From the NCBI GenBank assembly GCA_964443675.1, contig CAYUDN010000001.1, positions 10,862-74,861 on the forward strand: a DNA stretch of 64,000 nucleotides, in the 5' to 3' direction. Numbering within the stretch: the first letter of the stretch is position 1; every line of letters starts with the position of its first letter. The notes under the pieces are model-generated. The model saw nothing but the letters and a program-made list of their open reading frames with translations. It was not told the DNA's origin and did no database searches. Below are positions 295 to 56,870 of the stretch, piece by piece. The DNA is from an uncultured Candidatus Saccharibacteria bacterium. Lineage in GTDB: Bacteria; Patescibacteriota; Minisyncoccia; Phycocordibacterales; UBA5272. The position numbers and the translations under genes were made by a program.

Positions 295-1203
295 CTATAT
301 CCATGCGTAGAGTGTTTTATTATCAAGAATAATAGTATATTCCGGAACGTATGTTTTTACTAATGTTGAAAGAACCTCTTTATCGTCAGGGAGATGGTAT
401 GTCCTGAGTGCAAGTTTTGGCTTAAAGTGTTTAATGGTGTTTTCTGCTCCTTTGAGCAAATCTCGTTCCGCTCCCTCGATATCTGCTTTAATAAAATCAA
501 TTTTTGGAATATTGTTTTTTGTAACGTAGTCATCTAAAGTAATTTGTTCTAGTTGCACAACTTTATCTCCGGTGTGTTGTATTGTTTTTGAAGAAGCATT
601 GTAGTTTGAATCGAGATTGTAAAAAAAGTTAACAAGTTGACTTTTTTCTCCTAAGATTTTATTTTCTACACAAACATTAGTACAGTTGTTTTTTTCAAGG
701 TTCTCCGTTAAAATTCTACTAATTTCTTGTAAGGGTTCAAATCCAAAAACTTTCCCTTTTTCTCCTACTGCATCGCTTGCAACCACAGAAAACATCCCAA
801 CATTTGCTCCAGCGTCAACAACATAGTCTCCTCGGGATAAGGTAACTCCAAATTTCTCATAAGAACCTTCCGAGACGTAGAACGGATTATCGTAGACAAT
901 CTTTTCTATTGATGTATCTTTGAGGTTTAGTCTTGGGTACAGTATGTCGAAAAAATCAGTTTCGTAAAAACAGCCTTTCGGAAACCGTAAAGAGAATTTT
1001 CCTGCTTTAAGAAGCATGTCTTCAGATCTTTGTAGATGGATATGTTTACTGTTTTTTGTGAGGGCTCTAAAAAAAGTATTCTCCCCAAAGAACTTTTCTC
1101 GAAGTGATCCTGGTAGTAAAAAGAGAAAACTGAAACCATGTTTATAGTTTTTGATATAAAAAATTCTTTGCAGGATTCCATTTTTTATGTTCTTTATCTT
1201 CAT
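295..1203 (-). CDS. FkbM-family SAM-dependent methyltransferase
   Basis: The 302-aa ORF has the 'VVDAGANVGMFSVVAS' glycine-rich SAM-binding motif and a C-terminal region typical of FkbM-domain methyltransferases. It lies in a glycan operon on the minus strand. Confidence 0.65.
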   Translation of the reverse strand: MKIKNIKNGILQRIFYIKNYKHGFSFLFLLPGSLREKFFGENTFFRALTKNSKHIHLQRSEDMLLKAGKFSLRFPKGCFYETDFFDILYPRLNLKDTSIEKIVYDNPFYVSEGSYEKFGVTLSRGDYVVDAGANVGMFSVVASDAVGEKGKVFGFEPLQEISRILTENLEKNNCTNVCVENKILGEKSQLVNFFYNLDSNYNASSKTIQHTGDKVVQLEQITLDDYVTKNNIPKIDFIKADIEGAERDLLKGAENTIKHFKPKLALRTYHLPDDKEVLSTLVKTYVPEYTIILDNKTLYAWI

Positions 1204-1314
1204 TATATCGAGTTAAGATTGGTTAGTAATTATGTGCACGGCTTCTGTAGAGTGTATCATGATTCTGTAGAGTACTTCACTAAGTACAAAAAAGAATGAA
1301 ATTAAACAACTGAT

Positions 1315-2295
1315 TTACTTTTTTGGAAAGAGTAAATCAAGTTCTGTGATGATTGCTTCTAGTGACGTCTGTGTTGGTTTGTATCCAAGTAGTTTTGTAG
1401 CTTTTTTACTTCTGGAAAAATAAGAGCTTTTTGTTATTATTTTTTGAGTATTAGGCATTACCTGGTTAACCTTGTAGCTCATAGTATACTTTTTTGACAA
1501 AGCTTCAATTAAATCGAATTTAGAAATTGGTTTTTTACTGTAAATATCAAAGTAGTCATTAATCTTCTTCTTTTTTGCGATACGTTTAATAAGAGCTATA
1601 ATATCTTTTGCATTTACGTAGTCACGAACAATATTGTCTTTGTTGGTAATGAAGACACTTTTTTCAAGTATTGCTTTGACAATTTCAGACATGAGAAACG
1701 GGGAGTTTGTGTTGACAAGAGATCCAAAAAAACCAAATACACGTATATCGACAATGTTAAAGGTAGAGAGCGCGCGATGTTTTGCTTCTGCATTTATCTT
1801 TGTAATAGCATAAGGTTCTCCTATTTTTAAAAATCCAGAAGGTAGAGTTGTTGTTGTTTCTTCTGTTACAGAAGTTTTAAAATTGTCTCCATATACAACA
1901 CCGCTACTTATGTTGATGTAGAGCGTTTTTGGGTGAAGAAAAAGATTGTTAATAATAAGAGAATCTACTTCTTCTGCAACTTTAAATAGTTCGTAAGGGT
2001 TTTTTTGTGTATCTGGGTTACTACTTACCCCCGTACAATTAAGAACAATATCGTACTCTCCTTGTTTAAAATTACGAAGTGGAAGAGCTTTGTACTTTGT
2101 CTTTTTTTCCATATCTGCAATACAAGAGTATAAAGTCTTTTTTGAGCGATAAAATAAGAAAAGTTCGTAGTTTTCTTTTTCTAAAAAGAGCTCACGCAAA
2201 AGAGATCTTCCGACATACCCAGTAGAGCCAAGTATCGCTATTTTCTTCATAGATTCTAGTATAATAGTTTTACTAGTGTTTTCAAGACTAGACAT
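1315..2295 (-). CDS. NAD(P)-dependent epimerase/reductase (SDR family); paralog of the 13255-14190 gene
   Basis: N-terminal Rossmann motif 'ILGSTGYVGRSLL'. It aligns along its whole length, by eye about 40% identical, with the +strand ORF at 13255-14190 (shared blocks 'YD.V.NCTG...LQKNP', 'NIVD.RVF.FF', 'VRDY'). Confidence 0.65.
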   Translation of the reverse strand: MSSLENTSKTIILESMKKIAILGSTGYVGRSLLRELFLEKENYELFLFYRSKKTLYSCIADMEKKTKYKALPLRNFKQGEYDIVLNCTGVSSNPDTQKNPYELFKVAEEVDSLIINNLFLHPKTLYINISSGVVYGDNFKTSVTEETTTTLPSGFLKIGEPYAITKINAEAKHRALSTFNIVDIRVFGFFGSLVNTNSPFLMSEIVKAILEKSVFITNKDNIVRDYVNAKDIIALIKRIAKKKKINDYFDIYSKKPISKFDLIEALSKKYTMSYKVNQVMPNTQKIITKSSYFSRSKKATKLLGYKPTQTSLEAIITELDLLFPKK

Positions 2296-2420
2296 TATTA
2301 TAAAGTAATGTCAAGTTTATCTGGGGTGAGTTCAAGAAATAAAAAACACATTCATTTTTTTTAACATAGTATAAACATTTTTGGAAATGATTACTGATTC
2401 CATGCTGACGGTTTTACTTT

Positions 2421-3392
2421 TTAGTGTGCCGCTATCTTTTTTTTGAAATCTCTTATCAACACGATGAGTTTGTTAGGAATAAAGAACACAATAGTTAGCA
2501 GAGAGAGATGTACAACACCGAGACTTTTGAGGTTTTTTAACATGAACCATAAATTTTTTTTATTTATTTTTAGGCCGTGTCCTTTTGCGCGAAGCAGAAT
2601 AATGAGAATTTGCTTTCTGTTTTTTGATAACTCTTTTTCTATGGGTTCTTTTTTAAAGCCAAAATACATCATTCGCTCCAGAAGTAAATTTGAGTTAATG
2701 AATGTTGTAAGCTCTGCACCATTTTCTGACCATCTACAGTCTTGCCCAGTGTAAATGAGTGTTTGGAGAATATTAAGCATCTTTTTGTCTGTTTTTAAGA
2801 ACATTTTAAGAGGTGTTTCTGAATAAAGCCAGTACTCTAAATAGTCGGTGAGGTCTACACACTTCATCCAAAGATCTCGATTGAAAATGAGTGTACTAAA
2901 ACCACCAAGGTTGTGATTATTGTGATAAAAAGCATTACCATCTTTTGTTTCAAAAAGATCTTTTTCGTTGTATTCTTTTTTAGTTGCGTAGCTAGTGTTG
3001 CCTACAGATTGAGATCCGACGGAGATAAGGTCATAGAGATTTGTTTCTAATTTTTTTATAACAAAGTCTATAGATCCGTTTACAAGAGTGTCGTCATCAC
3101 CGAGATACCAGCAGTATGTTCCGTGTGCATGAGACACTACATTATATACATTTCGATCAAATCCTATGTTTTGCTCGTTTGCTGTATATACAAAGTGCGT
3201 AAATAGCGAAGAAAAGGATTGAGCGACTTCCTTGGTTGTGTCTGTGCTTGCGTTATCTGAAATAACAACCTCTACAAGGGGGCGGAGATGAGGGTTTTCT
3301 CTGAGCTGTACTTCGATACTTGTTATACAATCTTTGAGATAGTGTGCCCGGTTGTAAGTTGGAATACAGATACTAAGTAATGGTTTTTCCAT
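2421..3392 (-). CDS. Glycosyltransferase family 2
   Basis: Carries 'LSICIPTYNRAHYLKDCITSIEVQ' and 'VVISDNASTDTT', the typical GT2 N-terminal signature. Confidence 0.75.
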   Translation of the reverse strand: MEKPLLSICIPTYNRAHYLKDCITSIEVQLRENPHLRPLVEVVISDNASTDTTKEVAQSFSSLFTHFVYTANEQNIGFDRNVYNVVSHAHGTYCWYLGDDDTLVNGSIDFVIKKLETNLYDLISVGSQSVGNTSYATKKEYNEKDLFETKDGNAFYHNNHNLGGFSTLIFNRDLWMKCVDLTDYLEYWLYSETPLKMFLKTDKKMLNILQTLIYTGQDCRWSENGAELTTFINSNLLLERMMYFGFKKEPIEKELSKNRKQILIILLRAKGHGLKINKKNLWFMLKNLKSLGVVHLSLLTIVFFIPNKLIVLIRDFKKKIAAH

Positions 3393-3460
3393 AAGTAAAA
3401 AGTTTAGGAATCTATAAGAAAAGATCTTTTCAGTATATCGATTTTGTGATTTTGATGCAA

Positions 3461-4384
3461 TTACAGAATATTCTTTTTTCTTTTTAGAATATACCTTTTT
3501 ATGTCATCTCGTATAAAACCAAGAAGAGGAATAAGTCCTTTGTAATACCAGATAATTACCAAAAGAACATGGAAAGCTTTAAGGATATTGCCTACTTTTA
3601 CGTTTGCTTTTGCAATAGCATAATAACTTCCCGGACAATTTTTGTAGTATGTTGCCAAAAACTCCTGGCGTAATGCTTCTGTTGGGTAGTGTGTTGAGAT
3701 GGTCTGATATAAGTTGTCCCAGTCTTTTTTAATTTCCATCACATTACGTTTGATAAGTCCTTCAAAACCGGTAGAGGTTTTACTTATGTGATAAATAACC
3801 GTCGGCTCATCAATAAAACCGACATCATGTTGACTTGCAATGCGAGACCACATTTCAGCGTCAGAAGACAAAGATTCAATAAAGAGACCGAGTTTATCAT
3901 ACACATTCTTTTTCACTAGTACCGCAGAGCAGACACCGTAGTGGCACTTCATTGCTTCTAATCCTGCATTCCAAAAAGGAGCTTGATTTTTTTTATGGTA
4001 TTCCTTAGTCGTATAGCTTCCTTCATTTACAGAGTAAGAGTTGGCATGGATAAGTGCAACGCTAGGATATTTTTTGGAAAAAGTTTCGTAGTGAGAAAGT
4101 GCCCCAGGAACCATCTCATCGTCCGCATGGAATATCATTAACCATTCTGTGTCACAAAGCTCAATACAACGGTTCCAGTTGTTAGCCATTCCGAGGTTGG
4201 TTTCATTTTGATAGCATGTTATTTGTGGTTCATATGCTTTCGCTATTGTGTAGGTTGTATCTGTTGACTTATTGTCAACAAGAATTACCTTTGTAGAGAT
4301 ATCTTTTTCAGCAAGGATACTTTGTAGGCATCGTTGTATAGTCTTTTCTTTATTGTAAGAAGGGATAGCAATAGTAAGGTTCAT
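3461..4384 (-). CDS. Glycosyltransferase family 2
   Basis: Carries 'LTIAIPSYNKEKTIQRCLQSILAE' and 'VILVDNKSTDTT', the GT2 signature. Its stop abuts the next gene's start. Confidence 0.75.
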   Translation of the reverse strand: MNLTIAIPSYNKEKTIQRCLQSILAEKDISTKVILVDNKSTDTTYTIAKAYEPQITCYQNETNLGMANNWNRCIELCDTEWLMIFHADDEMVPGALSHYETFSKKYPSVALIHANSYSVNEGSYTTKEYHKKNQAPFWNAGLEAMKCHYGVCSAVLVKKNVYDKLGLFIESLSSDAEMWSRIASQHDVGFIDEPTVIYHISKTSTGFEGLIKRNVMEIKKDWDNLYQTISTHYPTEALRQEFLATYYKNCPGSYYAIAKANVKVGNILKAFHVLLVIIWYYKGLIPLLGFIRDDIKRYILKRKKNIL

Positions 4385-4386
4385 GG

Positions 4387-5721
4387 TTAGGCTCGTAGTA
4401 TAGCAAGAATTAAAGTTCGTAGTTTTTTAGTAAAAAACATAGAAAAGAACGGAATGGCATATGAGACAAGGCTTGCAAAGGCTGCTCCTTCCATACCGTA
4501 TTTTGGAATCAGAAAGATGTTAAGAGCTACGTTTATTAGCATTCCAAAAAAAAGAGTAAAAGAAATATGTTTTGTGAGGTTCTCAGTGATAAGAATTTGT
4601 TGTGTGAATAGATTTAAAGCTGTACCAATATTACTCCATACATAGATTTTCAAAACACTTACCGCTCCTAGAAATGAAACACCGTAAATAATGAGTGTTA
4701 TATATTTTGCCAAGATAGTTGTTCCTACTGCAACAGCGCCAGAAATAAGTATAAGAAGGATGAGAAGTTTTTTTACTCGTTTAAGGTAGAGTACTTCTGA
4801 GGTGTTTTTTGCATTGACGATTGCAGGGAACAGTCCGGCAACAATTAAATTAGGAATAAAATATGATATCTCTGACATGCGGACCGCTGCATCGTAGAGT
4901 CCAACAGATTGGGTGTCGATCATATTTTTAATCATAATTTGATCGATTCTTGCGTAAATCATAAAAAAAGCAGAAGCAAACATAAGAGGAAATGAATCTT
5001 TGAATAAGTTTTTGGCAATGTCAGCATTAAAACGAAGCTGAGAAAGGGGGCCATACAGAGTGATATGTATGTAGATGTACATTATTGAATAGAGCACTGG
5101 TTCTAGTAAGATAATTGAAGCAAGGTAGATAACACCTTTGTCAAAAAAGATAACAATAATTTTTAATGCATTTAAAAGGAGGGTAATAAGTATTGAAAAT
5201 ATGGAAGGGAGTTTTGACTTTAAGTCGGCCTGAAGTTCATAACTTATAAGTGTAAAAGTGCTTACCACTGGAGATAGTCCTACTATTAAAATAAGATATA
5301 AGGAAACATCTTTTGGAGAAAAAAGAAAAGCAATCAAAGAGCACGCAGTAAAAGAAACGACAGATGCAAGGAACTTTAAAGTGAGCGCACTCCCTAAGTA
5401 TTCATTTCTTTTCTCTGGGTGTTTTACTAGTTCTCTACAAAGAATTTGCTCAATTCCTAAATTTGCAAAAAAAGAAATAACTCCAACAAAACTGATTGCA
5501 TAACTTAACTCCCCATAGTTTTTCGGCCCAAGATTTCTTGCTGTGTACGCAGTTGCTACCAGTGCAATAATCATGGTAGAAATTCTTGCAAAAAACATCC
5601 AGCCTATATTTGAGGCGTATCTTTGAAAACCTTTATTGTGAAGCTTGTTTACAAAAAGACGAAAAATGTCAGAAAAAGAAACCCAGGAGTCTTGTTTTTC
5701 TTTATGTTGCTCATTATTCAT
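4387..5721 (-). CDS. wzx: Wzx-type polysaccharide flippase (multi-pass membrane protein)
   Basis: About 12 predicted TM helices and a polysaccharide-biosynthesis (MOP) family look. The ORF track start at 5781 is upstream of a more plausible ATG (MNNEQHKEK...) at 5721. Confidence 0.65.
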   Translation of the reverse strand: MNNEQHKEKQDSWVSFSDIFRLFVNKLHNKGFQRYASNIGWMFFARISTMIIALVATAYTARNLGPKNYGELSYAISFVGVISFFANLGIEQILCRELVKHPEKRNEYLGSALTLKFLASVVSFTACSLIAFLFSPKDVSLYLILIVGLSPVVSTFTLISYELQADLKSKLPSIFSILITLLLNALKIIVIFFDKGVIYLASIILLEPVLYSIMYIYIHITLYGPLSQLRFNADIAKNLFKDSFPLMFASAFFMIYARIDQIMIKNMIDTQSVGLYDAAVRMSEISYFIPNLIVAGLFPAIVNAKNTSEVLYLKRVKKLLILLILISGAVAVGTTILAKYITLIIYGVSFLGAVSVLKIYVWSNIGTALNLFTQQILITENLTKHISFTLFFGMLINVALNIFLIPKYGMEGAAFASLVSYAIPFFSMFFTKKLRTLILAILRA

Positions 5722-5791
5722 TGTCTTATAGTAGCATTGTTTTTTGCTATAGACTACTTTTCTTTCTTGGCTATGGTACACTTTAGTACAT

Positions 5792-6706
5792 ATGAAGACA
5801 TCATCATACAGTATCGGTATTGTAACCTATCACGCTCGTTTTGAGTCGTATTTTATTCCTCTTATAAAAAATTTATCAAGAATTTTTCCGGATAAAGAAA
5901 TTATTTGTGTAATCAACGGTCACAGTGATAAGACTTTGCAGATTTCTTACTTGGATAAGGTGACAAAATTCATGAAGCAATATCCAAATGTAAGATACCT
6001 CACTTATGATGTCGGACAGTCTCTCTCGAAATGTTGGAATCAATTAATTATTTTGTCTCACACAGAGAAGACCGTCGTGCTTAGTGATGATGTTTTTATC
6101 GGTGATTTTTTTAGAGAGCAATTAGAAGAAAATATTTCTAAGTATGATTTTTTTGCGATTAATCGATCATTCGCCCACTTTGTTATTTCTAAAGATATTG
6201 TACGTAAAGTTGGGTGGTTTGAAGAAAGACTTCCAAGAATTGGTTGGGAAGATACTGACTACCAGTTTAGACTTTTTATGGAAAAGGTTCCGTATCCGAA
6301 TGTGAAGATTCTTGGTTCTCTTAATTTACACACAGATACAGAAGGTTCTGACTGGGTTAATGATCCAACAAAACCAAAGAGTAAATACACATACGCTAAT
6401 GAAGATTTCTTTAAAACTAAATGGGTAACCAAACATTATAATCCAGAAATAAAAGAATTTGATTACAGGGATGGTGATGATTACCATACCTTCTCCTTGC
6501 GAGAAGGTATGGAGACACCTTGTTTTTACGATCTTGAAGTGCTTAATTTTGATACTACAACTGAAGTAGCTGGTGTCTATGAAAAAGACTCAGCTCGTTA
6601 TTTTATTCAAAAGACACTCTTTTTACTCTCTGATTTTATTTTTACTAATTTACGTAAACTTAAGCGTTTTTTGAAGAAAATAAAAGAAACACACCACCCG
6701 ATTTAG
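5792..6706 (+). CDS. Putative glycosyltransferase (GT-A-like), family uncertain
   Basis: A 304-aa ORF divergent from the wzx operon. It has 'IGIVTYHARFESYFIPLIKN' and acidic 'WEDTDY'-type motifs but no strong family signature. Confidence 0.4.
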   Translation: MKTSSYSIGIVTYHARFESYFIPLIKNLSRIFPDKEIICVINGHSDKTLQISYLDKVTKFMKQYPNVRYLTYDVGQSLSKCWNQLIILSHTEKTVVLSDDVFIGDFFREQLEENISKYDFFAINRSFAHFVISKDIVRKVGWFEERLPRIGWEDTDYQFRLFMEKVPYPNVKILGSLNLHTDTEGSDWVNDPTKPKSKYTYANEDFFKTKWVTKHYNPEIKEFDYRDGDDYHTFSLREGMETPCFYDLEVLNFDTTTEVAGVYEKDSARYFIQKTLFLLSDFIFTNLRKLKRFLKKIKETHHPI

Positions 6707-6729
6707 TTTGTCATTTGAAGCAAAAGATA

Positions 6730-7626
6730 TTACTTTTTTTCCTCACCAGCTAACATTTTTTTGAGTGCTTTTTTGATAGTTGTTTTTGGTTTCCATCCGG
6801 GTACAAGAGAATCTTTGTTCCAAGGCTTCATTATTTCTTTATTTCGATAAGGTCTTCCACCCCACACAATAGGAAGCGATTTCTTTGTTACTGATTCATA
6901 GAGTTTTGCAAGTTCTTGCAGTGTCATTCGTTCCCCTGAGCTTACCAGATATGATTTTCCGTTATAAAGATAACCTTTTTTGGTGGTGAGAAGTTTTGCC
7001 ATGTGGATGTATGCATCTACAACATTCCCAACGTAGTTCATATCAAGTATCTGTTTTCCAGGAGACATAGGGAATGGTTCTTTTGTGTTACCGATAGAGG
7101 ACCAGAGATTAAAAATTTTTGGGCGGGTATCTCCTTCACCAAAAGTGTCGAAGAGTTTAAGAGTGACTAGTATAATATCAGATGATTCTCGGTAATAGGT
7201 TGCTATATCTTCAAAGGCTTGTTTTGTTGCAGAGTAAAGGTTGAAAGGGGAATAACGCTTATTGTTACAATGTTGTGTAAAAGTTCCAGTATTGATAAAC
7301 CACTTTGTCTTACTCTTTGTGGTTGCTTCAAGGAGTGTACTTGCAAATAATATATTGGACTGAATAAGAGGTTCTACATCTGTTTCTTTATGTGAAACAA
7401 GAAAAAGAGAGGCGAGGTGTATCACCCCGTCAAATTTTTCTGTATTCATAAACGTTATAAGAGAGCTAACCGAGGTGTACACATGCACTTTTTTTAGGGG
7501 AACAGGAAATTCTTTTTCTAGGGACGTTTCTCGAACAATGATATGTACAGCATTACCCTCTTCAACCAACTTCTTCACGAGATGTTTTCCTATAAAACCA
7601 GTAGCTCCACTAATAAGAATTTTCAT
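6730..7626 (-). CDS. CDP-3,6-dideoxyhexose synthase-like SDR reductase (RfbJ/RfbS family)
   Basis: 'MKILISGATGFIGKHLVKKL' Rossmann motif, 'IHLAS', and a YxxxK-containing core. Its length and blocks resemble the Salmonella RfbJ/RfbS reductases. Confidence 0.55.
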   Translation of the reverse strand: MKILISGATGFIGKHLVKKLVEEGNAVHIIVRETSLEKEFPVPLKKVHVYTSVSSLITFMNTEKFDGVIHLASLFLVSHKETDVEPLIQSNILFASTLLEATTKSKTKWFINTGTFTQHCNNKRYSPFNLYSATKQAFEDIATYYRESSDIILVTLKLFDTFGEGDTRPKIFNLWSSIGNTKEPFPMSPGKQILDMNYVGNVVDAYIHMAKLLTTKKGYLYNGKSYLVSSGERMTLQELAKLYESVTKKSLPIVWGGRPYRNKEIMKPWNKDSLVPGWKPKTTIKKALKKMLAGEEKK

Positions 7627-7632
7627 AGTCGA

Positions 7633-8169
7633 TCAAAAAGGAGAGTTAAACTTTGCAAAAGGAGGCAGAGTGAGGTCTTTTTCTGAAACAATATACTCGT
7701 TAAGTGTGATAGAGAGATCAAAAGAATCGACACGAATACCCGCGTCATGTTCTTTTGAAAACTGTCCTGATTGCAAGTAAAAGGTGCAAGTATTATCTTC
7801 ATGAGTGATAAAGCCGTGCGCGCATCCTTTTGGAATATAGACCATCTTTCCATTGCTTTGACTGAGTTCGACGGTTATATGTTTACCATATGTGGTAGAG
7901 TTTTTTCGTAGATCAAGAATAATGTCAGTAACAGACCCAGAAGAAACACCTATGATTTTGATGTGATCTTTTGGAGGAAGGTGAAAATGCATTCCCCGTA
8001 CTACGTTTTTTTGAGAAACAGAATAAAAACATTCCTCGATGGTAACCCCAAGGTCCATTTTTTCAAAAGCGTCTTTATTAAATGTTTTAACAAAAGTTCC
8101 TCGATGGTCTTTAAAAACAGTTGGTTCTAAAATAAAGACACCCGCTATTTCTGTTTCTGTTTGCTTCAT
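7633..8169 (-). CDS. RmlC-fold (cupin) sugar-nucleotide 3,5/5-epimerase
   Basis: A 178-aa ORF with 'FKDHRGTFVKTF' and 'RGMHFH' blocks, characteristic of dTDP-4-dehydrorhamnose 3,5-epimerase and AscE-type epimerases. Confidence 0.7.
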   Translation of the reverse strand: MKQTETEIAGVFILEPTVFKDHRGTFVKTFNKDAFEKMDLGVTIEECFYSVSQKNVVRGMHFHLPPKDHIKIIGVSSGSVTDIILDLRKNSTTYGKHITVELSQSNGKMVYIPKGCAHGFITHEDNTCTFYLQSGQFSKEHDAGIRVDSFDLSITLNEYIVSEKDLTLPPFAKFNSPF

Positions 8170-9416
8170 TACTTTTTCTTTTTTTCCGATTTTATTTTTT
8201 GTTGTGAAAGAAATTCGTCAAATTTTGATTTAAGATATTCAATCTGCTCATCGTTAAGACCATGGTGACAAGCAACGACAAAGCCATTTTTCATGATCCT
8301 GTCAGTGTTAGGGAAGGCTGTACTGATTTTTCTGTTTTCAATTTTTCTGAACCCTGGTTGCTTAAGAATATTTCCAGCAAAAACTGGCCTTGTTTGAATG
8401 TTGTTGTCTTCAAGGAAGGTGATGATTTCGAGACGGGTAAATGAAGCTTTTGGTTTAATGATAAGAGGGAAGGCAAGCCACGCTGTTTCGGTGTCAGGTG
8501 TTTGTGTTGGAAGGTCAAAGAACTCACTTTTAGTTTTCATAAAAGCAATTAAGGTTTCAAAGTTCTTTTTTCTTTGCTCTAGGAAACCAGGAAGTCTTTT
8601 CATTTGAGCAAGCGCAAAAGCAGAAGAGATTTCGAGGGGAAGGAAGTTATAACCAACTTCACTAAAAATAAATTTGTTATCGTAAGGAATACCTCCAAGT
8701 TTGAAGTTAAAACGATTCTTAAGAAGTTCGGAATTTGCTTTTTCTCCATAAAGAGATGATTGACGTCCCCAACCACGAAGCACTTTGAGACGATTTACCC
8801 ATTTAGGGTCATTAACCATAATCATTCCTCCTCCTCCTGCACCGTTAATTATGTGAGATCCGTAGAAGCTTGTCGTGGTGATATGAGAATAGGTACCTGT
8901 TGGCTTATTGTAGAGCTTGCCTCCAAGAGTGTCACAAGAATCTTCGATAAGGAAAAGCTTGTGTTTTTTTGCAATATCAGCAAGAGCTTTGAGATCAGGA
9001 ATGTTTCCCATAAGAGAAGGGATCATCAAAGCTTTCGTCTTTTTTGTGATTGCTTTTTTAACTTGCTCAATATTTACAATATATGTTGTCGGATCAACGT
9101 CAACAAATACTGGAACAAGTCCTTTCTGAACAATTGGAGCAACCACGGTTGCAAAAGTGAGTGCCGGGGTTATCACCTCAGATCCTTTTGGAAGATTGAG
9201 AAGCTCAAATGCAAGAAGATTTGCTGAAGATCCAGAATTAACCATTGTACCGTATGCCTTACCGAACATTTTTGCAATTTTTGCTTCGAACTCTGTAGTT
9301 TTGTCTCCAAGAGCAGTGTTCCCTTTGAGGACTTCTACCACTGCGTCAATTTCTTCTTGTCCGTGTACAGAGAATCCGTAAGGTACTCGTAATTTTTGTT
9401 CAGTTTTTTTACTCAT
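8169..9416 (-). CDS. DegT/DnrJ/EryC1-family PLP/PMP enzyme, likely CDP-4-keto-6-deoxyglucose 3-dehydrase (RfbH/DdhC, E1-like)
   Basis: The 415-aa ORF is divergent from rfbG-rfbF. It shows the DegT fold blocks 'GSSANLLAFELL' and 'LFLIEDSCDTLG'. Position beside ddhA/ddhB suggests the E1 role rather than an aminotransferase. Confidence 0.65.
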   Translation of the reverse strand: MSKKTEQKLRVPYGFSVHGQEEIDAVVEVLKGNTALGDKTTEFEAKIAKMFGKAYGTMVNSGSSANLLAFELLNLPKGSEVITPALTFATVVAPIVQKGLVPVFVDVDPTTYIVNIEQVKKAITKKTKALMIPSLMGNIPDLKALADIAKKHKLFLIEDSCDTLGGKLYNKPTGTYSHITTTSFYGSHIINGAGGGGMIMVNDPKWVNRLKVLRGWGRQSSLYGEKANSELLKNRFNFKLGGIPYDNKFIFSEVGYNFLPLEISSAFALAQMKRLPGFLEQRKKNFETLIAFMKTKSEFFDLPTQTPDTETAWLAFPLIIKPKASFTRLEIITFLEDNNIQTRPVFAGNILKQPGFRKIENRKISTAFPNTDRIMKNGFVVACHHGLNDEQIEYLKSKFDEFLSQQKIKSEKKKK

Positions 9417-9593
9417 AAAATATATTAAAGTTTAGTGTGACACTACTATTTATAATGTTCTAGTATCCATGATAACAAAGTTTTACGAAAAAGTAACTAG
9501 TTTTGACATTATCACAAATGAGTTGTATTTTGTTGAATTGTTTGCAGTCGTGTCAGTTCTTTATTATAATCGAAAAATAGTTTCCCTTTATTT

Positions 9594-10670
9594 ATGTCCC
9601 TCCACTCGTTTTATAAAAATAAAAAAGTTCTTATCACTGGACATACTGGGTTTAAGGGTTCTTGGTTTACAGAAATCCTCCTCCTTATGGGGGCGCACGT
9701 GTCTGGTATTTCTCTTGTGCCCACATCAACACCTAACCTTTTCACTCTTTTGGGGTTGGAAAAAAGATGTTCAAGTTATATTGCCGATATCCGCAACAGA
9801 GAGGAAATGCTTCGTATTATTAGTAAAGAAAAACCCGAAATCATTTTTCATCTTGCTGCACAACCTATTGTAAGAACAAGTTACGATGATCCTTTGGGTA
9901 CAATTTCGACAAATGTTAACGGTACGGCGAATATTCTTGATGTTGTTCGTGAGGTTGGATTTGTTAAGTCAGTAGTAATTATTACTACCGATAAAGTGTA
10001 CGAAAATAAAGAGTGGCATTATGCGTATCGTGAGAACGATCCTCTTGGTGGGCATGATCCATATAGTTCAAGTAAAGCAGCGGCAGATATTATTTCTTAT
10101 TCGTATATTCAATCTTTTTTCAATCCTGAGAATTTCGAAAAAACACATAACACTCTCGTTGCTATTGCCCGAGCAGGTAATGTTATCGGAGGAGGTGACT
10201 GGTCTGAGTACCGACTTATTCCTGATGTAATTCGTGCTACTTACCATCATGGGAAACATGTAGAAATACGTAACCCTGATTCAGTGAGACCGTGGCAGCA
10301 TGTTCTTGAACCTATTTCTGGATATTTAATGTTAGGAAAAGAATTGTATGAGAAAAAAACACTTGTATCTGGTGCATGGAATTTCGGTCCACACAATGAT
10401 AGCTTTGTAAGTGTGAGAGCTCTTGCAGAGGGTGCGCAGGAGATTCTTGGCAAGGGAGGGTTTATTATTACTCCAGATACCTCTAAACATGAAGCAAACC
10501 TTCTTAAACTCGATATTAATAAAGCCATTGCTCTTCTTGGATGGAAGCCGGTGCTTTCTTTTAAAGAAACGCTTGAGCTTACTTTTTTGTGGTATAAAGA
10601 GTATTATGAGAGTAAAGGGGATATGGTTGCCTTTACAAACAGACAAATTAAACATTTTTTTAAAATATAA
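9594..10670 (+). CDS. rfbG: CDP-glucose 4,6-dehydratase
   Basis: 'KVLITGHTGFKGSWFTEILLLMGAHV' is the hallmark N-terminus of RfbG/DdhB. The length is 358 aa. Confidence 0.8.
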   Translation: MSLHSFYKNKKVLITGHTGFKGSWFTEILLLMGAHVSGISLVPTSTPNLFTLLGLEKRCSSYIADIRNREEMLRIISKEKPEIIFHLAAQPIVRTSYDDPLGTISTNVNGTANILDVVREVGFVKSVVIITTDKVYENKEWHYAYRENDPLGGHDPYSSSKAAADIISYSYIQSFFNPENFEKTHNTLVAIARAGNVIGGGDWSEYRLIPDVIRATYHHGKHVEIRNPDSVRPWQHVLEPISGYLMLGKELYEKKTLVSGAWNFGPHNDSFVSVRALAEGAQEILGKGGFIITPDTSKHEANLLKLDINKAIALLGWKPVLSFKETLELTFLWYKEYYESKGDMVAFTNRQIKHFFKI

Positions 10671-15043: not shown

Positions 15044-15246
15044 GTAAAAGTAAAGTTAATGAATATATAAGTAAATGTACAGTACTTTTAATTCTTTGTA
15101 AATGTATTTCACTTAGTAAGATTATAGACACAATGGTTTATATATAAGTCAATATTTTCAAGTCTTTTTTATAATGATAGAGTAAGTTTAGGTTCCTTAT
15201 AGAGACTATATGTCTTATAAGGTTGTTTGTTTTTTTGGGGCAAAAT

Positions 15247-16251
15247 ATGAAGACTGCGCTTGTGCTTGGTGCTGGTGGCTTCATCGGTCATCACATGGTT
15301 AATCAACTGAAGTCGGAAGGGTTCTGGGTCCGCGGTGTTGACATCAAGGATCCAGAATTCGAGCCGACGAAGGCTGATGATTTTCAGATCTTCGACCTTC
15401 GTAACTACTATGGTCTGAATCAGATCATGACGACTCCGCAAGGGGATGTGTTTGATCAGATCTACCAATTTGCTGCCGACATGGGCGGTGCTGGGTATGT
15501 GTTTTCAGGTCATCATGATTACGACATCATGCATAACTCTGGGCAAATCAACCTGAATGTGTCCCGTGTTCAGCTTGCGCTTAATCAGGTTCACAAGACA
15601 AACAAGACTGTTATCTTTTACAGTAGCAGTGCTTGCATGTATCCTGAGTACAACCAACTGGATCCGGATAATCCGAATTGCAGCGAAGACTCAGCATACC
15701 CTGCTAACCCTGATAGCGAGTACGGTTGGGAGAAGCTCTTCAGTGAGCGGATGTATCTCTCTCTTCTGCGTTGCTATGGGGTTCAGGTCCGTATTGCTCG
15801 TTTCCACAACATCTTCGGACCTCTTGGTACCTGGGAAGGTGGCAAGGAAAAGGCTCCAGCTGCCTTCTGTCGCAAGCTTGCGATGGCAAATAACGGTGAC
15901 ACGATTGAAGTGTGGGGAGATGGAATGCAAACGCGTTCTTTCCTCTACATTGATGAGTGCATCAAGGCGGTAAGGCTTTTGGTTGAATCTGACTTCGTTG
16001 GTCCGGTGAATATCGGTTCTGACGAAATGGTTTCGATCAACCAGCTTATCGATATGGTTTCCAAGATCTCCGGTAAGGATGTTGGAAGGAATCACATCCC
16101 TGGTCCTCTTGGTGTTCGTGGTCGCAATTCTGATAACAGGCTGTATCAAGAAAAGATCGGATGGTCTGTCTCTCAACCGCTTGAAGTTGGCCTTCGAGAG
16201 ACCTATAAGTGGATTGCCGAGCAGGTTGCCATGAAGCACTCGACAAAGTGA
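15247..16251 (+). CDS. GDP-mannose 3,5-epimerase-like NAD-dependent epimerase
   Basis: Long blocks almost identical to plant and bacterial GME: 'SSSACMYPE', 'RIARFHNI(F/Y)GP(L/F)GTW.GG.EKAPAAFCRK', 'WGDG.QTRSF..IDEC', 'NIGSDEMVS', 'HIPGP.GVRGRNSDN'. The start is moved to ATG 15247 (MKTALVLGAGGFIGHH). Visibly G+C-rich relative to its neighbours. Confidence 0.75.
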   Translation: MKTALVLGAGGFIGHHMVNQLKSEGFWVRGVDIKDPEFEPTKADDFQIFDLRNYYGLNQIMTTPQGDVFDQIYQFAADMGGAGYVFSGHHDYDIMHNSGQINLNVSRVQLALNQVHKTNKTVIFYSSSACMYPEYNQLDPDNPNCSEDSAYPANPDSEYGWEKLFSERMYLSLLRCYGVQVRIARFHNIFGPLGTWEGGKEKAPAAFCRKLAMANNGDTIEVWGDGMQTRSFLYIDECIKAVRLLVESDFVGPVNIGSDEMVSINQLIDMVSKISGKDVGRNHIPGPLGVRGRNSDNRLYQEKIGWSVSQPLEVGLRETYKWIAEQVAMKHSTK

Positions 16252-23878: not shown

Positions 23879-24391
23879 CTAGTTGGTACGTGGCTTGTGA
23901 AGGCCTTCATACTGCAGACGAGGAAAAGGATACCGGCCAACAGACTTGGTTGCAACCCTGATGACTTGCTCGAAATTGCCGTCGGCAACCTGGGCTTCGT
24001 CGTAGAGCACTGTCGGGCCGAGCATTTCGATGAAGTCACCAAGGCGGACAACCAGTCTGTATTCGGCAGGCTTGCGCCAGAACCAGAAACCACGACCTTT
24101 GGCGGGATTGCGCCAGAACAGCAGTACTGCGCCCTCACCGATCTGGAAGCCATCCACACGCTCGTGCTCGCTAGAGCCGTCGTTGAACTGCTTTCGCACT
24201 TCCGTTTCGGTCAAGGTTCGCACCTGTTCCAAAGAGGCGAACTCATGACGAACTGTCAGGCCGGTAGCGTGACGAATCTCGATACCTTCCTCGTTGATGG
24301 TGATCTGAATCTCACCCATTGCAATTTTGGATTCATCTGTCGGTGAAAGACCTGTGAAGGTTCCAAAGTAACGCTGAATGCCGTGTTCCAT
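23879..24391 (-). CDS. Hypothetical protein (170 aa) on G+C-rich foreign-looking DNA
   Basis: The ATG at 24391 is preceded by a GGAG SD about 8 nt upstream. Codon third positions are strongly G/C-biased, unlike most genes in the window. It contains the tandem motif 'FWRNPAKGRGFWFWRKPAE'. No family was recognised. Overlapping opposite-strand ORFs (23897-24346, 23719-24159) are judged to be GC-driven artefacts. Confidence 0.5.
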   Translation of the reverse strand: MEHGIQRYFGTFTGLSPTDESKIAMGEIQITINEEGIEIRHATGLTVRHEFASLEQVRTLTETEVRKQFNDGSSEHERVDGFQIGEGAVLLFWRNPAKGRGFWFWRKPAEYRLVVRLGDFIEMLGPTVLYDEAQVADGNFEQVIRVATKSVGRYPFPRLQYEGLHKPRTN

Positions 24392-24460
24392 AGCTGATCT
24401 CCGTGTGTATAAAGAACAAAAGCATTATACAACATATATACTGTATTTGTCAATATATGT

Positions 24461-24481
24461 GGACAGTAGAGGATTCGACGA
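24461..24481 (-). repeat. Exact 20-21 nt copy of the tRNA-Val 3' end (att-like partial tRNA duplication)
   Basis: Plus strand gtggacagtagaggattcga is the reverse complement of TCGAATCCTCTACTGTCCAC, identical to the 3' T-arm and acceptor segment of the tRNA-Val at 24835-24906. No upstream tRNA body is present. Confidence 0.6.
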
Positions 24482-24658
24482 TTGTTAAGGGTTTTCTTTT
24501 TCGTGTTGCACACTCAAACAAAAACTCTTAACTTTCGCCTAAGCTTCGTCGCCACAACTTTTGATTACAAAAGTTGGCTTCGCTTGCGGCTCAGTTCGAA
24601 TCCTCTACATGTCGCACAAAACATAATCACCCGAAGCCTTCGCTTCAGGTTCATTGTT

Positions 24659-24680
24659 TTGTGGACAGTAGAGGTTCGGT
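24659..24680 (-). repeat. Degenerate copy of the tRNA-Val 3' end (att-like scar)
   Basis: Plus strand gtggacagtagaggttcggtcc matches the acceptor 3' strand exactly, but its T-loop is degraded (ACCGAAC in place of TTCGAAT). Confidence 0.4.
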
Positions 24681-24826: not shown

Positions 24827-24834
24827 GTACTCGT

Positions 24835-24906
24835 GGACAGTAGAGGATTCGAACCTCTGACATCTACAACGTCAATGTAGCGCTCTACCAACTGAGCTAA
24901 CCGTCC
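24835..24906 (-). tRNA. tRNA-Val (anticodon GAC)
   Basis: Manual fold of the reverse complement: acceptor GGACGGT/ACTGTCC, D-arm GCTC-AGTTGGTA-GAGC, anticodon stem CTACA/TGTAG with loop TTGACGT (GAC), T-arm AGAGG-TTCGAAT-CCTCT and discriminator A. Confidence 0.85.
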
Positions 24907-25016: not shown

Positions 25017-25091
25017 GGCCCCATCGTCTATCGGTTAGGACATCGGCTTTTCATGCCGGTAAGCGGAGTTCGACTCTCCGTAGGGTCACCA
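25017..25091 (+). tRNA. tRNA-Glu (anticodon UUC), CCA encoded
   Basis: Collinear with E. coli tRNA-Glu: acceptor GGCCCCA/TAGGGTC (one C-A mismatch, one G-U), D-stem GTCT/GGAC, anticodon stem TCGGC/GCCGG with loop TTTTCAT (TTC), T-arm CGGAG-TTCGACT-CTCCG and encoded CCA. Confidence 0.75.
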
Positions 25092-25212
25092 ACGAAGATT
25101 TATCTTCACCACATTCGGTTGTTTTTACGTTGTTATAACAACGTAAAAGTAGTTGCAATATTTGCGTCATTTTATCTGTTATTTCTCTGATATAACAGAT
25201 AATGTTAGATAA

Positions 25213-25260
25213 CAAAAAAGACCCCCGCTTCGCATGACAATGTCATTTGATTTGGGGGTC
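25213..25260 (-). terminator. Rho-independent terminator of the SPFH gene
   Basis: gaccccc...gggggtc stem with an internal atgacaatgtcat palindrome, followed on the minus strand by TTTTTTGTT. Confidence 0.6.
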
Positions 25261-25278
25261 TGACCAGCACTGGTCTGG

Positions 25279-26217
25279 TTACTTGAGAGGGACTGTCGCC
25301 GGCACAGCCAGTTCGCCGATGATGGCCGTGCAGTTGGCTTTCGCTCCGCACTTCTCCACCGCTTCGACTTGCTTCTTGGCAACTTCCAGCTTGAGGAACT
25401 GCTCCGGCGTAAAGCCGACGCTGTTGCGGTAGGCGTTGTCCGCATTGGCGCGTTCGGTTTCAGCGCCCTTGCGATTGATTTCCGCTTTCCGGCGCTCGTC
25501 TTCAGTCTTTGCACGCTGTTGTTGCGAAGCAGTTTCAGCGAGAGCTTCGAGAACCTTGCTGGGAGGAGTTGCTTTGCCGACGATGACTTCCATCACTTCG
25601 ACATCGATGCCCTTGGCCTTCACGAACTCGCGCATCTCGGTGAGAACGACACGCTGGATTTCTCCGAGAATGTCTTTCCCTTCCTTGTTGAGCTGGCGGG
25701 TTGTGAGGGCTGTCATCGGCGTCTTGGCCACTTCATCGCGCACCGAGGTACGAAACAGTTCCTTAAGGTTCTGCTTGTACCAGTCAGGGCCGAAAGACGC
25801 ATGCAGTTTCGGGGTCTTGCCGGGGATCGGCCGGACCTTGATGTATGCATTGAAGTCGATCGGGATGTTGTCGACGGTGATCGTGCCATCCTTGACGTCA
25901 TCGAACCCTTCCGTAAACTGGAAAGGGCGCGTGTCGTACATGACGACGTTCGTCGTGTAGAAGAGCCACTTCGAGCCGGTGACATGGGGTTCTTGACGAA
26001 CACCGCCGTCACCGAACATCGTGAAGAACGGCTTGTCGATGAGGACGGCCTCGTGACCGGCCTCGACTTGCACCCGTTGCGTGACCATCACCATGAAGGC
26101 GATGAACAGGACGAACGAGATTGCGCCGATGATGCGCTTCTTGTATTGAGTCCAGAAACTGAACTCGTTTTCATGGCCGTAGCTCATGGGATTTCCTTTC
26201 GTGGGTTGTGTTGTCAA
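25279..26217 (-). CDS. SPFH/band-7 (stomatin/prohibitin-like) membrane protein
   Basis: N-terminal TM helix (IIGAISFVLFIAFMVMV) followed by an SPFH-type domain and an Ala/Glu/Lys-rich coiled-coil tail. An AGGAA SD precedes the ATG at 26217. Strongly G+C-rich codon usage. The three +strand ORFs overlapping it are rejected as antisense artefacts. Confidence 0.75.
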   Translation of the reverse strand: MTTQPTKGNPMSYGHENEFSFWTQYKKRIIGAISFVLFIAFMVMVTQRVQVEAGHEAVLIDKPFFTMFGDGGVRQEPHVTGSKWLFYTTNVVMYDTRPFQFTEGFDDVKDGTITVDNIPIDFNAYIKVRPIPGKTPKLHASFGPDWYKQNLKELFRTSVRDEVAKTPMTALTTRQLNKEGKDILGEIQRVVLTEMREFVKAKGIDVEVMEVIVGKATPPSKVLEALAETASQQQRAKTEDERRKAEINRKGAETERANADNAYRNSVGFTPEQFLKLEVAKKQVEAVEKCGAKANCTAIIGELAVPATVPLK

Positions 26218-26584
26218 AAAAACAGAAAATGTATCAGGAACATATATATCATATTATGATTATTATATTTTGTCAAGGCCGAAATTTTGCTTGATTTTAC
26301 TCACTAATACATAGTTCTATACCAGATACGGTATATAAACTAGAAGAGTTTTTGATGGTTTTTCTATGGAAAGATTGTAAAATATAGATATTATTCATAA
26401 TTAGTTAGTGCTAAAAGTCGATTTGGATACTTATTGAAAACTGTTTTCCATTTTATAATCTCATTTTCAATGGTGTTCCACCCTAGATAGTACTGGCTCA
26501 CCTTCAACAGCTAGCACTAGAAGGGTGCTTAAAGTAGTAAAAACAGTGTCTAAAAAACGCTGTTTTTACTATGCTTTTTTACCT

Positions 26585-26613
26585 TGACTTTTTACTACTT
26601 TCATGCTATTATT
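26585..26613 (+). promoter_or_regulatory. Candidate sigma70 promoter for the 26689 gene (TTGACT-N17-TATTAT)
   Basis: Read from the AT-rich 470-bp spacer between the two G+C-rich genes. A 10-bp hairpin gtaaaaacag...ctgtttttac lies just upstream at 26531-26563. Confidence 0.4.
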
Positions 26614-26688
26614 GTAGGAGTCACAATCTGTGGCAAATTGTTTCGGCAATGTAAACCGAGTTTGAACATTTACAAGGAGAGATAACCC

Positions 26689-27582
26689 ATGAACGGGATT
26701 ACTCAAGTCGTTCCTGCAACCGCAGGTCAACTCAAGCAGATCAATCGCATCATCGCTGATGCCGTCGAAAAGATCGTAACTGAACTCGGTCTCGACAAGG
26801 ACGGTGCACAGCGGGTCATCGAACATGGTGACGAACTCGTTGGCAACATCGGCGAGGTCACCCTGGCGACGCTCAAGGACTTGTCGGTCTCCGACAAGTA
26901 CAAGGACGAAGAAGTGAAGTCGAACTACGGCTACCTGTCGGGCTACAAGAAGCCGAAGGGTATCACTGAGCAGACCAACATCCTCCGTCAGCTGTTCCCT
27001 GGCATCGGCTTCGCTGACGAAAAGCTCGTCGAGCATGAAGTACCGAAGAATGCCGACGGATGGTTCGCCATTCCGAAGTGGCAGTCGCTCGCACCGACCT
27101 ATGGTGAAGCGGTGGAACTGGTGCTGAAGAAGCTGAGCGAAACCCGCAACGGTCGTTTCCAAAACTACCGTGAAAGCGAACTCGGTCCTGATCAGCTCCG
27201 CCAATCGGCGAAAACGGCAAGCGTGTTCCAGGAGCTCGCCGAAGAGCAGAACGGCTACGACATCCTCGTGGTCGCAGCCCAATTTGGTCTGCGTCACCGT
27301 GGTCGCTCAGTTCGCCGTGTGCGTGAGATCCTGCTCGGCAACGAGTTCGGACTCGGAGCGTTTGCTGTCGGCATCATGCTCCTCACCCACCCTGAACGAC
27401 TTGCCCACTACGACGATCTCTGGATCGACTGTGCTGGTGACGAGTTCGCTCCGGATGCGGATGGCGACTTCTGGAGGTCTCCGATCTTCATCTTCAGTGG
27501 CGTCAGGCTCAGGTTCGGCACCGACGGTGTGTCGGATGCGGACGGCTGCTGCGGTTCCGTCTCGGGGTTTCTTCCGCTGTGA
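26689..27582 (+). CDS. Hypothetical protein (297 aa), G+C-rich, unknown family
   Basis: A strong SD (caAGGAGAgataaccc) precedes the ATG. G/C-biased third positions. Acidic Gly/Asp-rich C-terminus. No motif was recognised. Confidence 0.55.
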   Translation: MNGITQVVPATAGQLKQINRIIADAVEKIVTELGLDKDGAQRVIEHGDELVGNIGEVTLATLKDLSVSDKYKDEEVKSNYGYLSGYKKPKGITEQTNILRQLFPGIGFADEKLVEHEVPKNADGWFAIPKWQSLAPTYGEAVELVLKKLSETRNGRFQNYRESELGPDQLRQSAKTASVFQELAEEQNGYDILVVAAQFGLRHRGRSVRRVREILLGNEFGLGAFAVGIMLLTHPERLAHYDDLWIDCAGDEFAPDADGDFWRSPIFIFSGVRLRFGTDGVSDADGCCGSVSGFLPL

Positions 27583-27638
27583 TCCTTGGATCTTGGGAAC
27601 TTGATTCTTTTGTTCCCTTGATTCTTGAATCCTTGAAC

Positions 27639-27666
27639 GGCTCGCTTGCGAGCCCTTTTTCTTTTG
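27639..27666 (+). terminator. Rho-independent terminator of the 297-aa gene
   Basis: ggctcgc-tt-gcgagcc hairpin followed by CTTTTTCTTTT. Confidence 0.55.
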
Positions 27667-28292
27667 GTCGAAGACCTCCGTATATTTTTTATATTTGATA
27701 TACTTTCCCTTGAGTCTAGGTTAGTGCATAGTAGTTCACGGATTACTATCACCGAACTCTTTCTCTATGAGAAATTGTAATCAGTATCATGGTGATCACG
27801 GTTACTATGACAGTGTTGTTGCTCTAGAGATACTGCTTACTACTTTTCAAGACAAATGAGCAATCATGTTGTCAGATAAAATACAGAATTATGAAGAAGA
27901 ACCTAAAAGGCTTTATGAGGCTTGGCCAGAAAAAGACTAGGCTGCCAATGAACATGAATACCCACACAGCCTTGAGCGGCCAAGGGGTTTCTGTGCTAGA
28001 ATTAGACATCTCACTTACTCTCTATGGTTGAGATTAATAAAATGAACAGAAAGTCTCCTTCTCAATTAGTGCCTGTGTTACTATACAACAAAACTATCAG
28101 TTTATCAAACCAATAAAAGACGAACCCAGTTTTGGGGTGAGATACTTAAAACCTTTTAAAACTCATTAAATTCCATTATCTCCTCCACTAACAATTCTCA
28201 ATTCTTTAGCCTCAGGGTTATATTGGTAGAGAGTTTCTACTCACACTTTACCCACATCTGCTTCTTCTGTATTCCATATATACTCTATCAAT

Positions 28293-56358: not shown

Positions 56359-56693
56359 CAGAAGTATCCTTTCAAAAAAAGTTGAAGAACAGTGTGAGAC
56401 CCTTCTGTCTCACAGGTATTAGTATAGCACGGGTAGTGTGATTGTGGAAGGTGAAAGGTGGGCCACTTCGCTTGTAGAGAGTGGAAGGGAGGGAAGAATG
56501 AAGAGTGAAAAGGAAAACAAAAAACCGCGGCGACTCCCGTCGTAGCGGCTTCCTGATCAAGTTGTCTTTTTTTGACTTCGTACACACGCTGTGTACCAAG
56601 AGTCTTGATCGCGGAGTTGCGAGCTCCTACTCTTGTGACCTTCTCAGGTCTCTAGATCTTCAACTCAAGGGTTTCTCCTTGTTGAGGTTTTTC

Positions 56694-56861
56694 TTACCGT
56701 TGCCAGGGGGCAGCGGCTTGAGGGCGGCGGGGGATGAACTTCTGCCGGATGGTCTTCGACCGCGCAGTGTGGGTCTTCCGCAGCGCATCGAAGCGTTCCC
56801 GCTTCTTACGCCGCTCCTCTTCTGCGAAGAACTCGCAGAAAGTCTTGTCCCAGTCGGTCAA
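56694..56861 (-). CDS. Small Arg/Lys-rich protein (55 aa), TTG start, translationally coupled to the upstream gene
   Basis: The upstream gene's TAA stop is embedded in an SD (cTAAGGAGAacca), followed by TTG. Frame: (M)TDWDKTFCEFFAEEERRKKRERFDALRKTHTARSKTIRQKFIPRRPQAAAPWQR. G+C-rich. Not in the ORF track. Confidence 0.35.
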   Translation of the reverse strand: MTDWDKTFCEFFAEEERRKKRERFDALRKTHTARSKTIRQKFIPRRPQAAAPWQR

Positions 56862-56870
56862 TGGTTCTCC

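Follow-up and report, generated by a model that had tools for sequence, protein, structure and literature searches.

What are the two G+C-rich genes that lie beside a tRNA-Glu gene on contig CAYUDN010000001.1 of an uncultured Candidatus Saccharibacteria bacterium, and do they belong together? The window, by which we mean the whole 64,000-nucleotide stretch analysed here, has a G+C content of 40.4%, and the genes in question encode an SPFH/Band-7 membrane protein on the minus strand and an acidic protein of 297 residues on the plus strand. The initial annotation viewed the pair as one recently acquired island from a high-G+C donor. We arrive at a different answer, to which we give a probability of about 0.85: the region is a patchwork of single genes that inserted independently at a tRNA hot spot, without a two-gene system, in which the 297-residue gene is an orphaned diversity-generating retroelement (DGR) target and the SPFH gene a moron-like piece of cargo.

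The gene for the 297-residue protein (26689-27582, plus strand; 58% G+C, with a G+C content at third codon positions, GC3, of 0.70) was initially described as lacking annotation, and in the standard libraries this holds: there is no match in Pfam, NCBIfam, PHROG or PADLOC. Nothing was returned by Pfam for 138 diverse members of its family, nor by a profile search of PDB sequences. In a set of 5.8 billion proteins there are 2464 homologues at 65-92% identity, all of the named ones from Parcubacteria/Patescibacteria, and a profile search gives 1950 family clusters at 50% identity. The family alignment has a body that is 65-92% identical and a hypervariable stretch of the last ~40 residues, and the proteins end in a conserved tail motif, G-S-[AV]-S-G-F, usually followed by x-P. 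We examined 80 species-representative loci that carry this family. In one of them, L001, which encodes a 68% identical protein, the last 132 nt of the target gene form an 85% inverted repeat with a segment beside a reverse transcriptase (RT) gene of the RVT_1 family, and every mismatch between this template repeat (TR) and the variable repeat (VR) at the end of the gene falls at an adenine of the noncoding copy (20/20). The targets of L007 and L008 are closer to the window protein, at 89% and 88% identity, respectively. In both loci the target gene is followed by a TR full of AAC codons, by bAvd (PF22296, 1.3e-17) and by RVT_1 (5.9e-28), and the mismatches between their own TR and VR again lie at TR adenines only (18/18 and 19/19 in L007 and L008). 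A TR is present in 41 of the 80 loci and an RT within ~2 kb in 37. The combination in relatives of adenine-only TR/VR mismatches, bAvd and RT identifies the system as a DGR and the 297-residue gene, from these sequence comparisons, as its variable protein; the suggestion that the protein might be an NfeD-like or protease partner of the SPFH protein finds no such domain to rest on.

In the intact relatives, the RT together with bAvd would copy the TR of ~130 nt into complementary DNA (cDNA), misreading adenines, and the cDNA would replace the last ~43 codons of the target, randomising the ligand-binding face of a C-type-lectin fold. One clade of DGRs found only in the candidate phyla radiation (CPR)/Patescibacteria, with targets that possess no recognisable domains, has been described ('DGR clade 2'; Roux et al. 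2021, PMC8144416), and the targets of a 'CPR set' of DGRs are likewise without a recognisable domain (Wu et al. 2018, PMC5758913). The family studied here resembles this lineage in being found in Patescibacteria only, in having a single small target with neither a transmembrane segment nor a recognisable domain, in carrying the VR at the extreme C terminus, and in the AAC-codon TR, adenine-only mismatches, bAvd and RT of the relatives of the window gene. Unlike that lineage, the window copy is without TR, bAvd and RT, its cassette being cut just before the TR, and the family is unmatched to any named cluster or VR class of the two surveys. None of the phage records carries the DGR target. The window gene is thus placed as an orphaned member of a known and very large CPR DGR-target family, and both the target and the SPFH insert are ordinary for the group.

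Some members of the family have additional features. In L006 (1-3100), the closest relative, two tandem target-like genes lie behind identical promoter regions, and the second has a different N-terminal part joined to a homologous C-terminal half and VR. Four family proteins (P0055, P0056, P0031 and P0084; 478-482 residues) either have the conserved core domain twice or show internal duplication. The DGR of L001 (1-20888) is located among restriction-modification genes, a Shedu-type SduA gene and a LexA/S24-methyltransferase fusion, together with phage genes for the terminase GpA and an SU10-type portal and capsid, a setting that is either a prophage or a defence island.

The fold of the 297-residue protein was modelled with AlphaFold2 (AF2). 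A model from close homologues only gave a predicted local distance difference test (pLDDT) score of 59; the diverse 138-sequence alignment gave a pLDDT of 95.9 and a predicted template modelling (pTM) score of 0.90. The modelled protein has a helical N-terminal bundle (residues 12-66), then an alpha/beta domain, with the VR on the last strands; a signal peptide is absent. Its structural matches include many animal C-type-lectin domains; the scores are modest and the matches consistent. The C-terminal domain is accordingly modelled, and here predicted, to be a C-type-lectin fold that bears the VR. Sequence identity to TvpA of Treponema denticola (PDB 2y3c), a DGR variable protein with a C-type-lectin fold, is only ~8%. 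The 297-residue protein differs from characterised C-type-lectin variable proteins in having no FGE-sulfatase Pfam match, and it has a short N-terminal helical bundle in place of a phage-tail or lipoprotein module. Another structurally characterised DGR variable protein with a C-type-lectin fold is Mtd of the Bordetella phage. With this model, the product of an unknown acidic reading frame can be annotated as a DGR variable protein with a predicted C-type-lectin fold.

How much of the retroelement has been kept in the window? Nucleotide homology delimits a conserved DGR-target cassette (26495-27894, plus strand) in which the gene is preceded by a hairpin and the promoter and followed by 3' cis elements and a spacer; the cassette is 90% identical to L007 (474-1876), 89% to L008, 94% to L006 and 82% to L010. 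The promoter, TTGACT-17-TATTAT with an extended -10 TG (26584-26612, plus strand), is identical in L006, L007, L008 and L010, and an AAGGAG ribosome-binding site is found ~8 nt before the ATG of the gene. The homology ends at 27894, which is ~35 nt short of where the TR starts in L007, L008 and L010. The VR, aligned with the TRs of relatives, comprises the last ~43 codons (27449-27579, plus strand), the part that is hypervariable in the family. It is 78-79% identical to the L007 and L008 TRs without gaps (~80% by BLAST), and 20 of the 27-28 mismatches are at TR adenines, although adenines make up only 25% of TR positions. This concentration of mismatches at adenines (20 of 28 against L007) argues that an element of this kind has diversified the window VR. 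The reading frame is intact and the body of the gene is evidently under purifying selection, with a ratio of nonsynonymous to synonymous substitution rates (dN/dS) of 0.12 against L006, L007 and L008, and of 1.5-1.7 in the VR. The rest of the retroelement is not found in the 64-kb window: there is no TR-like copy of the VR (the best match is 52%), no DGR-type RT by tblastn with the L001 RT (best E=1.6, from a query that finds 40 loci), and no Avd, as tblastn with an L001 open reading frame (ORF) extending over the TR and the sequence that precedes the RT matches the VR only.

The sequence immediately 3' of the gene (27583-27654, plus strand), delimited by a motif scan and a comparison of 42 loci, consists of a run of CTTG motifs followed by a hairpin, GGCTCG-CTTG-CGAGCC, and a T-run. 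Six CTTG motifs spaced 7-8 nt apart follow the stop codon, seven if the hairpin loop is counted, and this density (6 in 60 nt, where the mean is 0.37) is the highest in the window and marks a unique site. The hairpin (27639-27654) has a 6-bp G+C stem and a 4-nt loop and lies 57 nt past the stop codon, with the T-run next to it. A YCTTGR repeat and hairpin follow the stop codon in most of the 42 homologous loci and are absent after the TR copies; the hairpin is conserved across the family, and in L010 the stem is maintained with a changed sequence. In the Bordetella phage DGR, a hairpin/cruciform inverted repeat downstream of the VR is needed for homing (PMC3240598). The CTTG repeat with its hairpin may be both a terminator and a candidate recognition element on the VR side, or the hairpin may be a terminator only. 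The cassette, cut at 27894, lacks the TR, bAvd and RT but keeps the promoter, the ORF, the diversified VR and the 3' elements. Most likely the 297-residue gene is expressed as a frozen variant of a binding protein, unless it is served in trans by a DGR elsewhere.

The location at a tRNA gene stands as originally described: tRNA-Glu(ttc) (25017-25091, plus strand) is recognised by ARAGORN and by Rfam (RF00005) and ends at 25091. It is back-to-back with tRNA-Val(gac) (24833-24906, minus strand; ARAGORN and Rfam), and an Rfam scan of the window finds nothing beyond these two tRNAs. The 3' end of tRNA-Glu (..GGGTCACCA) is the attachment point of an element on its right, of which a probable 1.4-kb remnant persists (25092-26502), carrying the SPFH unit only. 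Evidence for the element comes from homology to L010, where window segments 25118-25223 (80%) and 26285-26502 (95%) match both flanks of a different G+C-rich small ORF. That ORF lies at the right-hand extremity of an element 4.3 kb long, which is duplicated in tandem, has integrated at the same end of tRNA-Glu and encodes a large serine recombinase with Resolvase, Recombinase and Zn_ribbon_recom domains. The element junctions are ..GGGTCACCA/ACAGG.. and ..GGCTCACC/TTCAACAGC.., the slash marking the join, and the far end of the remnant in the window is the tRNA-like octamer GGCTCACC (26495-26502; compared with GGGTCACC), a boundary marked by only 8 nt. Since the L010 flanks match, the junctions are the same and there is no recombinase gene in 25092-26502, the window segment is most likely a remnant of that element family. 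In L008, the tRNA-Glu 3' end runs straight into the upstream region of the DGR target without an SPFH insert, and so the SPFH module is a later insertion. A serine-recombinase element would have inserted between tRNA-Glu and the DGR cassette and later decayed, with the SPFH gene in the cargo position.

The unit exchanged between the window and L010 spans the -10 region to the terminator hairpin. A retro-insertion of cargo ORFs, bounded by their transcripts, was considered as a mechanism and rejected, because the exchanged unit includes the untranscribed -10 region. In L010 itself (1078-9816), two tandem copies of the element, each with the recombinase, two unknown genes and the G+C-rich small ORF, have identical ORF translations and lie between tRNA-Glu and the DGR target; L010 keeps a TR and has no RT.

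The SPFH identity of the cargo gene is secure, with a Band_7 domain (PF01145, E=3.8e-17; 63.3 bits against a cut-off of 23.6) at residues 50-246, and the protein also matches phrog_200 in PHROGs. The extent of the gene needs a correction: the first call, 25279-26217, begins at a TTG at 26217 on the minus strand, and the ATG at 26187 is the likelier start because of homologue lengths (302 residues) and a ribosome-binding site, giving a gene of 302 codons at 25279-26187 (minus strand; 56% G+C, GC3 0.73). Its sigma-70-like promoter, TTGACA-17-TATGAT (26276 to 26248, minus strand), came from a signal scan and has its -35 box at the edge of the segment in common with L010. The terminator, read from the sequence, is a hairpin, GACCCCC...GGGGGTC (25220-25260), followed by a T-run on the minus strand (25214-25260 in all). 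It was missed by the hairpin scan because of its long loop, and the L010 homology picks up again at its T-run. Signal scanning and direct reading of the sequence thus agree with the early description in giving each of the two genes a promoter and terminator of its own.

The SPFH gene is a self-contained, moron-like cargo unit of promoter, ORF and terminator. The concept of the moron, or cargo gene of an integrative element, suits it in several respects: it consists of one ORF, with a near-consensus promoter and a terminator that belong to it, and is unlike its surroundings in composition, it is flanked by conserved element sequences that enclose another ORF in L010, and the same SPFH subfamily is found in phages, as Xanthomonadaceae phages carry relatives with 30-37% identity over 82-99% of the length. 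Unlike a phage moron, it is carried by a decayed, tRNA-integrated serine-recombinase element and by no demonstrable prophage. The 76 SPFH homologues are standalone and their contexts differ (beside dnaB, between an M13 peptidase gene and DHFR, or beside an insertion sequence transposase); a lineage name is attached to one of them only, which comes from Kaiserbacteria (Parcubacteria). The window protein shares a Band_7 domain, an N-terminal hydrophobic anchor and a C-terminal coiled-coil-like tail with the SPFH proteins of stomatin/NfeD and HflK/C-FtsH operons, but neither it nor its homologues have a neighbouring NfeD or protease gene, and its neighbour in the window is divergent and without such a domain. 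A match to the HflK model is far under threshold (19.7 bits against 159.4), and PADLOC gives no significant match for the three G+C-rich proteins of this region, that is, these two and a third discussed below, the SPFH protein reaching only a marginal JAB hit (E=0.029).

The compositional observations that drew attention to this locus are well founded. In 200-nt windows, G+C is 53-61% over 25200-26200 and 26700-27600, next to tRNA-Glu, and the spacer between the genes (26200-26600) is AT-rich as reported, with only 27-34%. Both genes are foreign in composition, as claimed: GC3 is 0.73 in the SPFH gene (z=11.2) and 0.70 in the 297-residue gene (z=10.2), measured against 42 ordinary genes of the window from a greedy gene set (mean 0.318, standard deviation 0.037, maximum 0.40). 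The intergenic pieces (25092-25278, 26188-26688 and 27583-27894) are 32-38% G+C, and therefore the G+C richness is confined to the ORFs.

Is the juxtaposition of the two genes real, and does it mean anything? Mis-joining of foreign G+C-rich pieces into a low-G+C contig, a worry raised at the outset, could produce the sharp compositional steps, and the short-read contigs of relatives often break near such cassettes. This is extremely improbable. Two Logan assemblies, made independently, agree with the window at 100%: SRR12487045 is identical over 25052-26906, running across both joins, tRNA-Glu/SPFH and SPFH/target, into the 297-residue gene, and SRR12487046 is identical over 25062-26476, covering tRNA-Glu and the SPFH gene and ending before the target cassette. 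Moreover, only the ORFs are G+C-rich, their flanks being host-like with conserved promoters, and the same G+C-rich cassette sits in an AT-rich frame in L006, L007, L008 and L010. The first model of the locus, in which the SPFH and 297-residue proteins form one functional island recently acquired from a high-G+C donor outside the CPR, such as an actinobacterial host, has in its favour that the genes are adjacent and divergent, both high in G+C and beside a tRNA gene. Yet an SPFH homologue occurs in 0 of the 80 loci with the 297-residue family, the SPFH gene has no conserved neighbour and unrelated contexts, no NfeD or protease domain connects the proteins, the modules are separately bounded, and the L008 junction has the target cassette without the SPFH gene. 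The named homologues, moreover, are all from Patescibacteria. We regard the island model as very improbable and its pairing of the genes as mistaken. More weight attaches to the alternative that diversification of the target continues, with a full DGR (TR, bAvd and RT) elsewhere in the genome recognising the VR end and the 3' hairpin. Several observations tell against considering the gene orphaned. Of the differences between the window VR and the heterologous L007 TR, 8 fall outside TR adenines, the VR's own TR being lost or remote. Of 46 family loci with at least 3.5 kb on both sides, 23 have TR and RT nearby, 3 a TR only and 2 an RT only, and the 18 with neither keep intact genes, so that orphans may be functional or trans-served. 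The search covered 64 kb of a contig of 125,748 bp, and RT and TR may lie elsewhere in the genome. Service in trans would fit the intact reading frame and purifying selection, a VR far diverged from that of the closest relative L006 (dN 0.23, with a body dS of only 0.12), the fully kept CTTG repeat and hairpin downstream of the VR, and the ~39% of family loci that are intact without TR and RT nearby; non-adjacent targets are known for DGRs in general (PMC5758913). On the other hand, RT and TR are not found within the window, and the end of the cassette at 27894 suggests that the machinery which relatives have at this place was deleted. We hold continued diversification in trans to be a possible but minority explanation, and prefer an orphaned target. 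The 18 of 46 orphans bear on the frequency with which frozen forms of a hypervariable binding protein are retained in CPR bacteria.

Where, then, does the high G+C come from? Most likely it reflects gene flow from Patescibacteria of higher G+C followed by slow AT-ward decay, a direction and timing that we infer from base composition and substitutions. At four-fold degenerate sites the base frequencies are A.06, C.46, G.30 and T.17 in the SPFH gene, A.10, C.40, G.24 and T.26 in the DGR target, and A.30, C.14, G.13 and T.43 in the window's own genes. The signature of the first two is like that of 57% G+C Patescibacteria (A.11-.14, C.43-.44) and quite unlike that of the window's own genes. This signature and the Patescibacteria/Parcubacteria membership of all named homologues leave the proposed actinobacterial donor without support. 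The SPFH gene has 50% G+C in a Kaiserbacteria host of 52% and 53-56% in hosts of 33-40%, and polarised tip substitutions in the target body run AT-ward, with 12 GC-to-AT against 3 AT-to-GC on the window branch and 40 against 17 over four branches. What a transfer of whole cassettes from a high-G+C donor does not explain is that the RT is host-like or AT-richer in 29 of 29 loci, and this weighs against our account. In 73 of 74 loci the target is richer in G+C than the remainder of the locus (by 15.7 points on average), while the RT next to it is host-like (-3 points, and correlated with the host at r=0.85); the offset of the target is equal with or without a nearby TR; and in L007 and L008 target and RT have been inherited together (94.6% and 95.4% identity), yet at 58% against 30% G+C. 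These facts, with the near-consensus promoters on all three G+C-rich genes, would be accommodated if high G+C were an intrinsic, selected property, a codon bias for high expression or a requirement of DGR targets, and no trace of transfer. Such selection is unlikely in view of the AT-ward tip-branch substitutions, the ordinary GC3 of the ribosomal protein S1 gene in the window (0.39), the host-like G+C of the SPFH gene in Kaiserbacteria, and third-position adenine that is no more depleted than in non-DGR cargo genes. It is more doubtful still that the G+C excess is a family-wide, gene-specific property of Patescibacteria DGR targets instead of a transfer scar, with the CTTG repeat and hairpin perhaps serving as the lineage's target-recognition signal. 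If true, this would mean that a force not yet recognised is tied to the status of DGR target; for example, the target module might be replaced again and again, recombination might drive a GC bias, or the homing reaction might impose it. Gene flow within Patescibacteria remains our preferred source of the G+C. Compositional islands in CPR genomes can be viewed as mosaics of single-gene cassettes exchanged within the radiation, and not as imports from host bacteria, and the contrast in composition between target and RT and the conserved CTTG-repeat element are leads for work on DGRs.

Over the 29 loci with both genes (L007-L085), the target has 58.6% G+C (GC3 0.73), the RT 39.3% (GC3 0.41) and the host flanks 42.4%, and the contrast is extreme in L062 (target GC3 0.84, RT GC3 0.21). 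Adenine depletion of synonymous sites in the target through mutagenesis by the RT was also considered and was rejected, as T is depleted too and cargo genes have the same A/T ratio.

A third G+C-rich single-gene cassette (23879-24478, minus strand; GC3 0.60) lies on the other side of the tRNA pair and is part of the context of the locus, outside the DGR. Its 170-residue ORF (23879-24391), with a perfect TTGACA-18-TATAAT promoter (24453 to 24424), has no match in Pfam, NCBIfam, PHROGs or PADLOC; the protein has 24 homologues, and in three other assemblies the contig breaks off ~120 nt upstream of the homologue. The cassette abuts a 20-nt copy of the tRNA-Val 3' end (24459-24478), a further copy being present at 24661-24680, and its homology to L093 (87.5%) ends at 24456. 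Within 400 nt, then, the tRNA-Val 3' end (24833-24852) is repeated directly at both of these positions and in inverted orientation at 24594-24608, and the small hairpin/terminator units between the copies look like scars of successive integrations. Further away, a G+C-rich patch at 56500-57500 (~57% G+C) contains long ORFs on both strands, of 328 residues (plus) and 201 residues (minus), without a Pfam match or a homologue in any fetched locus; its ORF at 56505-57491 was tested as a paralogue of the DGR target and rejected. An NAD-dependent epimerase/dehydratase gene at 15223-16251 is also compositionally atypical, with a GC3 of 0.52 (z=5.5).

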